A stretch of 64,000 nt of DNA from Myxococcales bacterium (lineage in GTDB: Bacteria; Myxococcota; Myxococcia; Myxococcales; Anaeromyxobacteraceae). The notes below the pieces were generated by a model. It did not search any database. It worked only from the letters and a program-made list of their open reading frames with translations, and was not told the DNA's origin. Shown one piece after another: positions 6,543 through 14,157 of this stretch; positions within the stretch are counted from its first letter, which is position 1, and the number at the start of each line of letters is the position of its first letter. The stretch lies in the NCBI GenBank assembly GCA_038320275.1, contig JBBQEB010000002.1, positions 1 through 64,000 of the forward strand, written 5' to 3'. The translations under genes were made by a program, and so were the position numbers.

Positions 6543-6576
6543 AGAGGCGGGCCCCCGGGCCCGCCTCTTTTCGTTT
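6543..6576 (+). terminator. Rho-independent terminator
   Basis: AGAGGCGGGCCC/GGGCCCGCCTCT inverted repeat followed by TTTCGTTT. Confidence 0.85.
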
Positions 6577-6625
6577 GGAACTCTGGGCGCCACCGGGTCG
6601 AGCAGTGGCTTCTCGAGGCAGCGGC

Positions 6626-6661
6626 TTGCGCGCGCCGCGCGCAACACGCATACGGATATGC
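6626..6661 (+). promoter_or_regulatory. Putative vapBC operator palindromes
   Basis: TTGCGCGCG-C-CGCGCGCAA (6626-6644) and GCATA-CGGA-TATGC (6648-6661) directly before the vapB ATG. Confidence 0.5.
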
Positions 6662-6868
6662 ATGCGAACCACTCTGATCTTGCGTGACGATCTCCTTCGA
6701 AGAGCCGCCGAGCTGACGGGAATCGCCGAAAAGACCGCGCTCGTCCATGCTGGTCTCGAGCTGCTCGTCCAGCGCGAGGCGGCGCGTCGGCTCGCCGCCC
6801 TTGGGGCATCGGAGCCTCAGCTCGAACTACCGCCCCGGCGACGCTCCACTGCGGATCGACAGCGTTGA
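6662..6868 (+). CDS. vapB: Type II antitoxin, VapB family (RHH)
   Basis: MRTTLILRDDLLRRAAELTGIAEKTALVHAGLELLVQREAARRLAALG; overlaps the PIN toxin gene by 4 nt. Confidence 0.85.
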   Translation: MRTTLILRDDLLRRAAELTGIAEKTALVHAGLELLVQREAARRLAALGASEPQLELPPRRRSTADRQR

Positions 6869-7224
6869 TCCTCGCGGACACGTCCGTTTGGGTCTATCAC
6901 CTGCGTTCTGGCTCCGAACCACTCTCGATGGCTCTCGAGAAAGGCGAGGTCCTGACCCATCCGCATGTCATCGGCGAACTAGCGTGCGGGAACCTTCGCG
7001 ACAGGGCCGCCTTCCTGAGATTGCTGTCGATGCTTCCGCGGTCTTCGCTCGCATCTGACGCGGAAGCGCTCGCATGCATCGAGAGCAACCGCCTGCAGGG
7101 GCGCGGTCTCGGTTGGGTCGACGTGCACCTGCTGGCTTCGGCGCTCCTCGACCGATGCCAGCTCTGGACCATGGACAAGGCGCTCGCTCGCGAGGCGACG
7201 CGCTGCGGGATTCGTTCGCCGTGA
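6865..7224 (+). CDS. vapC: Type II toxin, VapC PIN-domain ribonuclease
   Basis: ILADTSVWV, VIGELACG and GLGWVDVHLLASA...LWTMD PIN motifs. Confidence 0.9.
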   Translation: MILADTSVWVYHLRSGSEPLSMALEKGEVLTHPHVIGELACGNLRDRAAFLRLLSMLPRSSLASDAEALACIESNRLQGRGLGWVDVHLLASALLDRCQLWTMDKALAREATRCGIRSP

Positions 7225-9297: not shown

Positions 9298-10227
9298 TCA
9301 CCTCGGGCGTGACGGTCGCCACCAGCCCAGCTCCACGCGCGCGCCGTCGTACCCGCGCCAGGCCACCGGGCGGCGCGTTCCCTCCGGGCAGGGATGCCGC
9401 ACGAGACGCTCCCCGGCCTCGAGCTCCATCCCTCCGCACTCCGGACAACGGAAGCCGGCCGCGATCGCCCGGAGGTCGCCGGCGGAGAGCGGCTCCGGGC
9501 GTTCCAGGGGCGGGCCCGGCCGGGAGCCCAGCAGGCCGCGGGCGCGGTAAGCCTCCAGCTCCGCGATGTCCCCCGCCTCCCCCCCGGCGCCGCGCTCCCT
9601 CTCGGCCCGCTCCGCGGCCTGGCAGCGAGCGCAAGCGCCCATCCCGAGCGTCCGGGCCACCCGGAGGGCGCTCCAGCTCGGACCCTCTTCCTCCCAAGCC
9701 TCCCGCGCGTCGATCTCCAGGGCCGGAACGCCGAGCCGCGCCAGCGCCGCCTCCTTGTCCGGCTCGACCGCATGCGTGACCAGCACCTCCAGCGCGAGCG
9801 CGGGCACCCCGCCGCGGGTGACGAGCACGTCGCACCGCAGCGCGCCCAGCGCGCCCTCCGGCTCCGCCGCGTCTCCGAGCGCGGCCAGCTCGAGCGGCGC
9901 CTCGCGCCTGCAGGCGGGACAGCGCGCCCGCAGGGTCACCGACCGCCGTCCTGAGAAGGCCTCCGCGCAGAGAGAGAGGAGGCGCTCCTTGGCTCCGAGG
10001 TGGAGCGCGGTCTCGGGGCGGGTGAGCGGGCAGGCGGAGCCGGGACGGTGCGCGAAGTGGCGGGCGCGGATGGCGCCGAGCCGCGCGACGACCTCCTCGC
10101 CGCAGCCGGCACAGCGGAAAGGAGCGCGGGCGCGCCGGGCGGCGCGGTCGAGCTCGCGAACGTGCACGGGCGCCCCGTCACGGTCGAGCGCTCTCGCCAG
10201 CAGCACCGGGGTCGTTGCGCCCGTCAC
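9298..10227 (-). CDS. CoiA-like protein (zinc ribbon plus PD-(D/E)xK-like nuclease fold)
   Basis: CAGCGEEV...RHFAH...C...[14 protein letters not shown]...LALEV...H; additional CxxC pairs. Confidence 0.7.
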
Positions 10228-10283
10228 CTCGCGCAGTCTAATACCTCGCGCGCGCCACGCCGGCGCCCGCGGAGGATCGACGC

Positions 10284-10742
10284 ATGTCGCTCGAAACTGG
10301 AATGAAGGCGCCTCCCTTCACGCTCCCCGACGAGGAGGGGCGGGAGGTGAAGCTCGCGAGCTTCCTGGGGAGGCGCGTGGTCGTGTTCTTCTACCCCAAG
10401 GCCGCCACCCCTGGTTGAACCCGCGAGGCCAACGACTTCCGTGACGAGGTCGATGCGTTCGAGAAGAAGGGCGTGGCGGTGCTCGGGATCTCCAAGGACC
10501 TCCCGGCGGCGCAGAAGAGGTTCAAGGAAGCGCAGGGGCTGCCGTTCCCGCTGCTCTCCGACCCGGACGCCGCCGTCCAGGAGGCCTGGGGCGTCTGGAA
10601 GGAGAAGAACATGTACGGCAAGACGAGCATGGGCGCCGAGCGGACGACGGTCATCGTCGGTCCGGACGGGAGGGTGGAGCGCGTGTTCGCCAAGGTGAAG
10701 GTGGACGGGCACGTGTCCGCAGTGCTGGGCGCGCTCTCTTGA
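10284..10742 (+). CDS. bcp: Bcp/PrxQ peroxiredoxin with selenocysteine at codon 45 (TGA 10416-10418)
   Basis: GGAGG RBS; MSLETGMKAPPFTLPD...VVFFYPKAATPG-U-TREANDFRD continues in frame into the 10473..10742 ORF. Confidence 0.88.
10433..10452 (+). promoter_or_regulatory. Candidate bacterial SECIS hairpin
   Basis: CGACUUC-CGUGAC-GAGGUCG, stem starting 14 nt after the UGA, G at loop position 2. Confidence 0.65.
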
Positions 10743-12127
10743 GCGCCGGCCGCCGCGCGCCGCGAGGGGGTCCGCAGCGCGCGAGGCCCCTCCGGCCCGA
10801 CCTCGTCGATGCGGCGGTGCTGGAAGTCTACGGCCTCGTGCGCGAGGGAGGCTGGCTCGCCGATCGCGCGCTGGAGCGCGTGCTGCGCCGGGAGGGGCGG
10901 CTCTACTCCAACGAGCGCCGCGCGGTGGCCGAGTCGGTGTACGGCCTCCTGCGCTCGCAGGGGCAGCTCGCGTGGCTCCTCGGCTCGAACGACGTGCTGG
11001 CGCGCGCGGGGAGCCGCACGGCTGGGCGCCGGTCGGCCCCCGAGCCGGCCACCCTGTACGCGCTCGGATTGGTGCGCTCGGGAGCGGCCACGGCCGAGGC
11101 TGCGGCGCGGCGGCTGGGCCTCCCCCCGGCCACGCTCCTCGCCGCCCTCGACCGCGCAGACGAGCGCATCGCGGCCCTGCGCGACCCCGCCGATCGCCTG
11201 GCGGTGCGGGCCTCGCTCCCGCGCTGGATCGCCGAGCGCTTCATCTCGGAGCTGGGCGAGGAGGAGGCGGGCGCCCTGGCGCGCGCCCTCAACGAGCGCG
11301 GGCCGCTCACCGTGCGCGCGAACCTTCTCGCCACCACCCGCGAGGCGCTGCAGGCGCGGCTCGCGCAGGAGGGCATGGAGGCGAGCCCCACCCGCGCTTC
11401 GCCGTGGGGGCTCGTCCTCGATGGGCACGAGAACGCCTTCTCGCTGCCCTCGTTCGAGGAGGGGCTGTTCGAGATCCAGGACGAGGGCAGCCAGCTCATC
11501 GCGCTCGCGGTGGGCGCTCGTCCCGGCCACAAGGTCGTCGACGCCTGCGCGGGCGCGGGGGGAAAGTCGCTCGCGCTGGCCGCGGAGATGCGGGGGAAGG
11601 GCTCGCTCTTCGCGCTCGACTCCGACGGTGGGCGGCTCTCGGAGGCGAAGCGCCGCGCCCGGCGGGCTGGCGTCCACAACCTCCGCGCGCGCGAGATCCC
11701 CGCGGGCCCCGAGGCGAGCGCGGCTCTCGCGGACCTCGCCGGCGCCTGCGACAGCGTCCTCGTCGACGCGCCCTGCAGCGGTCTCGGAGCCCTGCGTCGC
11801 AAGCCGGATGCGCGCTGGCGACTGCAGCCGGCCGATCCGGCGCGCTTCGCGGCGCTCCAGCGCGAGCTGCTCCTCCGCTTCGCGCCGCTGGTGAAGCCTG
11901 GTGGGCGCCTCGTGTACGCCACCTGCGCTGTCGGGCGCACCGAGAACGAGGACGTGGTGGCATCCGTGCTTCCGGAGCTGCCCGGGTTCGCTCCGCTCCC
12001 GCTTGCTTCAGCCCTTGGTGGGGCCCTGGCAGGGTCCCTCGGCGCGGTGGGGCCGACGCTTCGGCTCCTGCCCCATCGCCATGGTACAGATGGCTTTTTC
12101 GTGGCTTCGTTCACGCGCGCAGCCTGA
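10739..12127 (+). CDS. RsmB/NOP2-family SAM-dependent RNA m5C methyltransferase
   Basis: QDEGSQ, DACAGAGGKS, VLVDAPCSG and LVYATC motifs. Confidence 0.9.
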   Translation: MSAGRRAPRGGPQRARPLRPDLVDAAVLEVYGLVREGGWLADRALERVLRREGRLYSNERRAVAESVYGLLRSQGQLAWLLGSNDVLARAGSRTAGRRSAPEPATLYALGLVRSGAATAEAAARRLGLPPATLLAALDRADERIAALRDPADRLAVRASLPRWIAERFISELGEEEAGALARALNERGPLTVRANLLATTREALQARLAQEGMEASPTRASPWGLVLDGHENAFSLPSFEEGLFEIQDEGSQLIALAVGARPGHKVVDACAGAGGKSLALAAEMRGKGSLFALDSDGGRLSEAKRRARRAGVHNLRAREIPAGPEASAALADLAGACDSVLVDAPCSGLGALRRKPDARWRLQPADPARFAALQRELLLRFAPLVKPGGRLVYATCAVGRTENEDVVASVLPELPGFAPLPLASALGGALAGSLGAVGPTLRLLPHRHGTDGFFVASFTRAA

Positions 12128-12258
12128 AATTCCCACGCACTTTCGCATACATCCGCACCGGAGCGCTCGCTTGGGCGGCTGCTGCGCCTGCAGGAGGCGT
12201 GCGTCTAGGATGGGTCAGCTGGGGGTCGCTCCTTGGAAGGGCCCGCCTGCTCCACCGC

Positions 12259-14157
12259 ATGCTGACCGCCACCCTGCTTCTCCCGGCGCTCCTCGCCTTC
12301 GGCGAGACGCCGTCCTTCCCGGCGCTCACCGCCCCTCCGGACCTGCTTCGCCCGGATCCCTGCAATCAGCTTCAGACCCTGGAGGACGGCCGCTGCGGTG
12401 AGCAGCCGCTCTGCTCGCGCCGGCAGCGGGTGCAGCTCGCCTGCGAGCTGCGCGACGCGCTCGAGAAGCGGTACGTCTTCTACCCGGTCAAGGGCCGGAT
12501 GCTGATGCGCGGGGGCCCCGGTGAGCTGTTCGACTCCGGCGATCACCTCGACGCCTGCGTCGCCGAGGAGCGGTCCATCGACCGAGAGTTCGATCCGCTC
12601 CGCTTCTACGATCGGATGCGGCGGTGCACGGCCGGGTTCGCCGACGGACACCTCCTGCTCGGCGCGCCGGCGCGTCTCCCGCAGGTCGCCCTCGGTATCG
12701 GGCTCCGCCTCGTCGAGGGGCGGGTGTACATCGCCAACCGCGAGCGGAAGCTCGTCTCCTATCTCAAGACCGTCTCGGGCGTGCGCGATCTCGAGGGGCT
12801 CCTCGCGGTGGGAAACGAGGTGGTGGAGCTGAACGGCAGGCCGGTGCGCGAGGTCCTGACCCGCCTCGCGCAGTACATCCCGGCGAGCTCCGACGCCGCC
12901 CGGCTGGAGCGCGCCGCCGACGCGCTCACCCGCCGCGACTTCGCCTATCCCGACCGCGCGACGGCGGCGGTGACGGTGGTGGTAGGCAGCGGCCGGCGCA
13001 CGCTGGAGCTGCCGTGGTGGATCTCTCCCGACGCCGAGTCGCACGTCATGACCGCCGCGTACGTGCGCCGCATCGGCCTCGCCACCACCGACCTGTTGAC
13101 CTGGCGCTACGACCAGGCGCGCGACACGTGGGACCGCGAACCGGGCTCCGCGCAGGGGTACCTGCGCACCGACACCGTCCTGCCCCCTCGCGACGCGGCC
13201 TCCCTGCGCGAGTACACGGACGACCAGGATCGCTCCGCGGTGCGCCTGGGCGAGGTGGTGCGCCGCAGGGATCGCGCCTTCTGCTACATGCAGATCCTCA
13301 CCTTTCACACGGAGTGGCTCTCCTCGCGCGACGGCCGGCAGTCCTTCGCGGAGGTGGCGGACGGCTTCGTGCGCGAGTGCAAGGAGAAGGACCTCGACCT
13401 GGTGCTCGACCTGCGCCAGAACGAGGGCGGCTACCTGGCCCACACCAGCACCCTCTTCGCGACCCTGTCCGAGCGGAAGGGCTCCTATCCGGGCGGCGCG
13501 CTCATCCTGCGCGCCAACACGCTCAACCAGCTCATCTACCAGCAGCGCGCCCCCACGCTGGGCGGCGTGCCCGCGCGCACGGCCGACGACGCGTTCGAGC
13601 CGCGCCGCATCGCCGACGCCATCGGGGCGGCGAAGCGCGCGCGGCAGGACTTCACCCCCGCCTTCCTGGAGGGCCCGGTGCGCGCCAGCTCCGCCGTCGG
13701 CGGCTACGAAGGGCGGGTGGTGGCGCTCATCGCCCCCACCTGCATGAGCGCCTGCGACCGGCTGGTCGCGCTCCTGCGCAGCTCGCGGCGGGCGCTGCTG
13801 GTGGGCTCGCCCACCGAGGGCGCCGGCGGAAGCCAACAGGAAGCCCGCAACCTGGCAGTGCGCTGGTCGGATCCCGAGGGGCTGCTCTCCGTCTCGATCC
13901 CCAACGCGGCCATGGGCGTGCAGCGGAGCGTCCCCGGCCCCGGCGAGCGCAAGGACCAGCGCACCTCGGCGGAGTTCTTCGAGGCGCTGACGTTCGAGAA
14001 CCGGCCCACCTCGCCCGACGTGCCGTACGCCACGACGCTCACCGACCTCGAGGAGCACAATCGCGGCTGGATGCAGCAGGTGGACGAGTCGCTGTTCGGC
14101 GCGCGGGTGAGCGGCCCGGCGCTGGCGGCGGGCACGGCGGGCGCGGCGGGGAACTGA
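12259..14157 (+). CDS. Secreted S41-family peptidase-like protein
   Basis: Hydrophobic N-terminus, PDZ-like GNEVVELNG, LVLDLRQNEGG, CMSACD, LVGSPTEGAGG. Confidence 0.7.
   Translation: MLTATLLLPALLAFGETPSFPALTAPPDLLRPDPCNQLQTLEDGRCGEQPLCSRRQRVQLACELRDALEKRYVFYPVKGRMLMRGGPGELFDSGDHLDACVAEERSIDREFDPLRFYDRMRRCTAGFADGHLLLGAPARLPQVALGIGLRLVEGRVYIANRERKLVSYLKTVSGVRDLEGLLAVGNEVVELNGRPVREVLTRLAQYIPASSDAARLERAADALTRRDFAYPDRATAAVTVVVGSGRRTLELPWWISPDAESHVMTAAYVRRIGLATTDLLTWRYDQARDTWDREPGSAQGYLRTDTVLPPRDAASLREYTDDQDRSAVRLGEVVRRRDRAFCYMQILTFHTEWLSSRDGRQSFAEVADGFVRECKEKDLDLVLDLRQNEGGYLAHTSTLFATLSERKGSYPGGALILRANTLNQLIYQQRAPTLGGVPARTADDAFEPRRIADAIGAAKRARQDFTPAFLEGPVRASSAVGGYEGRVVALIAPTCMSACDRLVALLRSSRRALLVGSPTEGAGGSQQEARNLAVRWSDPEGLLSVSIPNAAMGVQRSVPGPGERKDQRTSAEFFEALTFENRPTSPDVPYATTLTDLEEHNRGWMQQVDESLFGARVSGPALAAGTAGAAGN

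Follow-up and report, generated by a model that had tools for sequence, protein, structure and literature searches.

A 64,000-nucleotide stretch of DNA from a member of the Anaeromyxobacteraceae (the window) carries a bcp/prxQ peroxiredoxin gene in which an in-frame UGA at codon 45 is very probably decoded as selenocysteine (Sec), predicting a peroxide-reducing enzyme that contains no cysteine. The gene lies on the forward strand at 10284..10742 and, when read through codon 45, comprises 152 codons, none of them for Cys, followed by a TGA stop (10740-10742). As the initial annotation had proposed, the ATG at 10284 is preceded by a Shine-Dalgarno-like GGAGG (10271..10275, forward strand), located 8 nt 5' of it. 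Promoter-like sites were sought at positions 10100-12300 and none were found there.

The read-through protein scores 155.4 bits against the NCBIfam BCP model PRK09437 (cut-off 140; residues 2-151, with U entered as C) and matches the Pfam AhpC-TSA domain with an E-value of 5.9e-40; in a PDB search, the best of 11 matches were BCP proteins (E 1e-34, residues 17-151). Around codon 45 it reads ...YPKAATPG-U-TREANDFRD. Both the Pxxx(T/S)xx(C/U) motif and the active-site arginine are present, in the form of Pro38 and Thr42 (10395..10409), the TGA codon 45 (10416..10418) and Arg120 (10641..10643), all on the forward strand. Across the 79 family orthologues described below, Thr42 is found in all 79 and arginine at position 120 in 78, the lone exception being a row whose reading frame diverges; Arg120 is also conserved in the alignment with BCP structures. 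The UGA was thus correctly placed by the earlier reading at the peroxidatic position, in frame with the downstream Bcp half.

Codon 50 (10431..10433, forward strand), where the resolving Cys of helix 2 is expected, is AAC, and a resolving Cys of either kind (helix-2 CxxxxC or helix 3) is absent from the 152 residues, in agreement with the original description of a Cys-free protein with Asn in place of the resolving residue. Having no resolving Cys, the predicted protein would fall outside the 2-Cys (atypical) BCP/PrxQ class. It is not a member of the PrxU family as modelled by NCBIfam NF040737 either, scoring 48.2 bits where the cut-off is 270. A single-sequence structure prediction (mean pLDDT 54.7, below 50 in the active-site segment) was set aside, and nothing about the fold was deduced from it.

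We searched 92 genomes of the family Anaeromyxobacteraceae for orthologues, defined as matches at E <= 1e-45, and found one in 79 of them (13 had no match; a second, partial match in genome G060 was excluded). Codon 45 is TGA in 64 of these orthologues and TGC in the other 15, with no other codon and never TAA or TAG, which is the pairing of Cys and TGA that the initial annotation had suggested looking for in an alignment of homologues; related genomes are non-independent samples, and this applies to all orthologue counts given here. Of the 10 genera with a match, 9 include TGA at this codon, and among 8 loci that we examined in other families of the order it is present in 3. A wider set of 80 loci, which partly overlaps the 79 orthologues and whose counts are therefore not pooled with them, has 21 TGA and 59 TGY. 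The nearest named relatives of the window protein are Anaeromyxobacter and other Anaeromyxobacteraceae records, at 63-76% identity. Gene order supports orthology, since an RsmB-like gene directly follows bcp in 21/21 same-family loci with flanking sequence. On a gene tree of 87 coding sequences, from which codons 45-57 were left out, the TGA and TGC states are interleaved, with 10 changes. A BCP from Terriglobia (L110; 55% identity) also has TGA at codon 45, together with Ser50 and a Cys at position 91 and without this hairpin sequence, and it probably represents a separate Sec lineage.

The distribution of TGA bears directly on whether the gene is instead a nonsense pseudogene or the product of a sequence error. 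TGC turns into TGA by a single base change, the end branch of the window gene is fairly long (0.22, compared to a median of 0.076), and the Sec machinery of the bin is only partly assembled. However, the conserved TGA, within the family and beyond it, in practice already refutes this explanation, which we consider the least credible of those weighed here. Decay of the downstream half was not seen: compared to the orthologue of genome G045, 83/106 residues are identical after the TGA and 30/44 before it, and GC3 is 0.94 after and 0.86 before. The half beyond the TGA is therefore as conserved as the half preceding it, a pattern unlike that of a pseudogene, and the hairpin codons described below are selected in TGA genes only. 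Sequencing runs gave one DNA match, a sediment metagenome that is possibly the source sample, and none among RNA; its contigs have only TGA at codon 45, although the covering piece starts 3 bases upstream, so that it provides no independent support.

Downstream of the UGA lies a predicted bacterial SECIS hairpin (10433..10452, forward strand), with a 7-pair stem and the 6-nt loop CGUGAC (10440-10445). The published bSECIS model describes a loop of 3-9 nt, a stem of 4-16 bp, a G in the first two loop positions, a distance of 16-37 nt from the UGA, and a minimum free energy <= -7.5 (PMC13188914). We applied these constraints as a filter of our own, and the hairpin agrees with every one of them: its stem has 7 pairs and a free energy of -7.8 kcal/mol, and its loop of 6 nt starts with C-G-U at a distance of 21 nt from the UGA. 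Compared to shuffled sequences, the 27-nt core fold has a z-score of -2.08, while the z-scores of four longer windows are non-significant (0.15, -1.12, -0.35 and 0.55). When the same filter is applied to the 1901 long frames of this genome that end in an ordinary TGA, 100 (5.3%) pass. In addition, the peptide DFRDEV yields much of the stem under GC bias: stems of 6 or 7 pairs occur even in 13 of the 15 TGC genes. For these reasons the hairpin taken alone is evidence of modest weight.

Comparison between the TGA and TGC orthologues carries the case. The full 7-pair stem is formed in 64/64 TGA genes and in 2/15 TGC genes, and in one genome (G052) the outer C-G pair is swapped in a compensatory manner to G-C. 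Three synonymous codons inside the hairpin run against codon bias in TGA genes only. Arg53 is CGT in 41 and CGG in 23 of the TGA genes and never CGC, whereas the TGC genes use CGC (11) or CGG (4); of the 352 Arg codons elsewhere in the TGA genes, 6 are CGT. Glu55 is GAA in 40/63 TGA genes and 0/15 TGC genes (background 29/533), and Val56 is GTC in 64/64 TGA genes and 2/10 TGC genes (background 454/1169). The effect of these choices in the TGA genes is an unbroken stem and a loop with G-U or G-G. This silent-site constraint is the decisive SECIS signal, and along with the restriction of codon 45 to TGA and TGC it upholds both the hairpin and the Sec reading proposed initially. The contrast also fixes the loop bases of the SECIS element by natural variation: G-U or G-G, never G-C. 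Decoding would then proceed by the bacterial pathway, with SelB and Sec-tRNA binding the G-U/G-G hairpin loop 21 nt downstream and inserting Sec; where selenium is lacking, a 44-residue fragment would be released.

The bin to which the window belongs consists of 343 contigs and is 90.7% complete, with 2.9% contamination. Two different tRNA-Sec genes score above the Rfam cut-off, at 75.2 and 73.5 bits, and selD is found at 397.5 bits, with an in-frame TGA of its own; selC and selD, which a bacterial selenoprotein requires, are therefore both in the bin. The two tRNA-Sec genes lie at contig C89:8313-8411 and contig C231:1160-1258; with each of the 14 kin tRNA-Sec loci, the C231 copy scores closer than that of C89, and kin genomes mostly have one strong tRNA-Sec copy. 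The selB gene is represented by its 5' end only: a contig breaks off after 48 codons, which have 87.5% identity to a SelB of the same genus and lie beside the same upstream gene as in 4/4 kin loci; a search of the bin for the SelB C-terminal domain found none. The only selA match (409 bits) is on contig C312 (1,904 bases). Its product has 45-48% identity to four same-family SelA proteins, and the NuoD-like gene beside it shares 41-44% identity with the copies that belong to the bin itself. Because of this poor match and the divergent neighbour, C312 is probably foreign and a contamination of the bin, a question to which tetranucleotide distance gave no answer. In the family, selB was detected in 72/92 genomes and selA in 34/41 relatives. 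Since selA is situated ~12 kb from selB in kin, the native selA may fall in the same assembly gap as the rest of selB. Of the Sec machinery to which the initial annotation had looked, the bin thus shows both tRNA-Sec genes, selD and part of selB, together with a selA match that is probably foreign.

These components also bear on the possibility that UGA is read as Cys or Trp, through recoding of the genome or suppression, rather than as Sec. Cys-inserting tRNA-Sec-like systems exist in some bacteria. In this genome, however, TGA is a working stop that terminates 1901 long high-GC3 frames, both tRNAs with a UCA anticodon score as tRNA-Sec, selD is present, and a Trp in the catalytic site would be inactive. 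We regard such a reading as very unlikely, and the decoding of codon 45 as Sec as the best explanation.

The initial annotation had expected standard gene callers to truncate such a gene, and they do. A collection of 15 billion proteins holds the 44-aa N-terminal fragment as a called protein, and the ORF listing made without read-through gives only a 3' piece starting at 10473. The 3' ORF, as given, has no match in the same collection; the full-length protein also drew a blank there, but with U entered as C this blank is uninformative.

The residue at position 50 differs between the two groups of orthologues. In the TGA genes it is Cys in 39, Ser in 20 (AGC 17, TCC 3), Leu in 2, and Ile, Glu and Asn in one each, the sole Asn being that of the window gene; in the TGC genes it is Cys in 15/15. 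The SECIS stem begins at the third base of codon 50, in line with replacement codons that end in C. No Cys at all is found in 25/64 TGA genes and 0/15 TGC genes; without two rows in which the reading frame extends past the retrieved sequence, the count for the TGA genes is 24/62. The Cys-free state changes 12 times on the gene tree. In its clade (support 100/100), the window gene is surrounded by four genes of the U/C50 form, and its Cys loss is therefore an event of its own. A naive Fisher test of Sec against Cys loss (p 0.0019) ignores kinship and is not relied upon. An independent-pairs test, with 5 pairs on supported branches, was non-significant (median p 0.25), with averages of 3.0 pairs in the expected direction, 0 against and 2.0 without difference. 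The new point offered here is therefore modest: Cys-free forms occur among Sec genes only and seem to have arisen by repeated loss, with a phylogenetic test that is non-significant.

The TGC orthologues, for example L173 (genome G085) and L189 (genome G084), are scattered among the TGA genes; each still forms 5-7 of the 7 stem pairs, and two have the full hairpin. The scatter suggests several Sec-to-Cys changes, in a tree analysis that is not rooted for direction, and a possible reading is that the TGC orthologues are recent Sec-to-Cys reversions with fossil SECIS elements. More broadly, selenium might free the enzyme from its resolving Cys, with Cys50 lost repeatedly and in Sec genes only, and with the Cys genes looking like reversions whose SECIS elements are decaying; we see the chances of this as evenly balanced. 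Glutathione peroxidases offer a parallel case, in which the Cys forms have a resolving Cys (PMC10298544). If the proposal is true, the U/C50, U/no-Cys and C/C50 forms are a natural matched set for studying how a selenenic acid is recycled without a thiol of the enzyme's own, and for asking whether the U/C50 forms use their Cys.

By the chemistry of the family, the selenolate of Sec45, which Pro38, Thr42 and Arg120 hold in place, would reduce H2O2 or an organic peroxide and would itself become a selenenic acid, as expected from peroxiredoxins generally. Having no resolving Cys, the enzyme needs an outside thiol for recycling, and for this, where the initial annotation had named no route, there is precedent in 1-Cys BCPs. 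Many prokaryotic BCPs are without a resolving Cys, and the 1-Cys BCP of Burkholderia cenocepacia (Clarke et al.) is reduced directly by thioredoxin and more efficiently by GSH/glutaredoxin (PMC8945050). We favour, though at somewhat under an even chance, a direct attack on the selenenic acid by a WCGPC thioredoxin, which would form a mixed selenenylsulfide; the second Cys of the thioredoxin would release it, and thioredoxin would then be re-reduced by thioredoxin reductase and NADPH. The bin contains two WCGPC thioredoxins and one thioredoxin reductase above cut-off.

It is also plausible, at about one chance in three, that the selenenic acid is first thiolated by a small thiol and then reduced by glutaredoxin or a second thiol, in the manner of the Burkholderia 1-Cys BCP or of Sec glutathione peroxidases. 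The efficiency of GSH/glutaredoxin towards the 1-Cys BCP speaks for this route, as do two glutaredoxins (CPYC and CPYS) and a GCS2-family glutamate-cysteine ligase-like gene in the bin. Against it, neither a glutathione synthetase above cut-off (two matches reach 57 and 52 bits, the cut-off being 299) nor bshC was found in the 90.7%-complete bin. A third route, which we hold improbable, is an intermolecular diselenide between two Sec45 residues that is then resolved by glutaredoxin or thioredoxin; against it, most BCPs are monomeric and their active site is recessed. Such a route has been proposed for another 1-Sec oxidoreductase, the MsrA of Clostridium oremlandii (PMC4479559). Direct attack by thioredoxin remains our preferred route of recycling.

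Other genes in the bin also have an in-frame TGA. Two peroxiredoxin paralogues, at contig C5:47974 and contig C59:11041, have TGA at the peroxidatic codon. For the C5 paralogue, a hairpin of 8 pairs with the loop GGGA is found 23 nt downstream; the C59 paralogue did not pass the strict SECIS filter, and nor did a thioredoxin-like TGA gene on contig C13. The latter (C13:31727-31999, L143) has a signal-peptide-like start and the motif WAPW-TGA-HTC, and is a candidate UxxC selenoprotein.

Directly after bcp in the window is an RsmB/NOL1-like RNA cytosine methyltransferase gene (10739-12127, forward strand), which scores below all specific NCBIfam cut-offs. A translational coupling of bcp to this gene, and hence its control by selenium, was considered and dropped as the spacing varies; a start of the RsmB-like gene that overlaps the bcp stop is possible in 4/19 family loci (those with the right frame caught by our script). 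Divergent from bcp, on the reverse strand at 9298-10227, lies an ORF whose product matches the CoiA N-terminal domain (E 1.3e-13); in 12/21 same-family loci an ORF of this kind adjoins bcp and separates it from the rpsB-tsf genes. Further upstream, a pair of short overlapping ORFs on the forward strand (6575-6868 and 6865-7224) resembles a VapB/VapC (PIN-domain) toxin-antitoxin module.

The initial annotation had presented the gene as a hidden selenoprotein; as a discovery this does not hold, and the window gene is an ordinary case, since a Cys-free orthologue has been on a selenoprotein list since 2006 (PMC1794560) and TxxU peroxiredoxins are a catalogued family (PMC13188914). Its value in that respect is small, and lies in giving the right annotation to a gene otherwise shortened to 44 residues by gene callers. 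The orthologues, however, provide a test system of near-identical small proteins in Sec+Cys, Sec-only and Cys+Cys forms, a set that could address the reasons for using Sec in enzymes and the recycling of a Sec that stands alone. We found no study of the biochemistry of a Cys-free Sec-BCP in the open-access literature.

Among known systems, the Prx selenoprotein family (PF00578, TxxU) is listed as an established prokaryotic family in a 2026 review, with PrxU of Eubacterium acidaminophilum as an experimental example (Söhling 2001, cited in PMC13188914). The window protein shares with this family the PxxxTxxU motif and the AhpC/TSA domain, but PrxU belongs to another subfamily, as seen from the NF040737 score above. 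The BCP/PrxQ structures of the 5iph, 5iox and 3gkk series are the best sequence matches but are Cys enzymes, and 5iox carries a second Cys in the region of helix 3, at a site occupied by Lys in the window protein. The 1-Cys BCP of B. cenocepacia likewise lacks a resolving Cys and needs an outside thiol, but its peroxidatic residue is Cys and not Sec, and the reductants were measured in that protein (PMC8945050).

The closest precedent is in supplementary file 4 of Zhang et al. 2006, which lists three selenoprotein peroxiredoxins in Anaeromyxobacter dehalogenans (PMC1794560); a TxxU Prx of this species is also shown in a figure legend elsewhere (PMC1914089). In the main text of Zhang et al., the terms 'resolving', '1-Cys' and 'BCP' do not occur, and its Table 1 counts zero Sec-to-Cys changes for Prx (PMC1794560). 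By eye, our C5 and C59 paralogues resemble Prx 2 and 3 of that list. The entry 'Anaeromyxobacter_dehalogenans_1', which was listed as a selenoprotein by computation only, differs by eye at 3 of 151 positions from the protein of Anaeromyxobacter sp. PSR-1 (L057), which in turn is 74% identical to the window protein. A BCP-type protein from Geobacter metallireducens on the same list is a more distant sequence in another order, and by eye, unaligned, it resembles the window protein in having TPGU, U-x4-N and no Cys (PMC1794560). 'Anaeromyxobacter_dehalogenans_1', a protein of 151 residues, has Ser50 instead of Asn and TSGU (TSGU-TQEAS) instead of TPGU, but like the window protein it is BCP-type, with U45, no Cys and the same DFRDEV stretch (PMC1794560).
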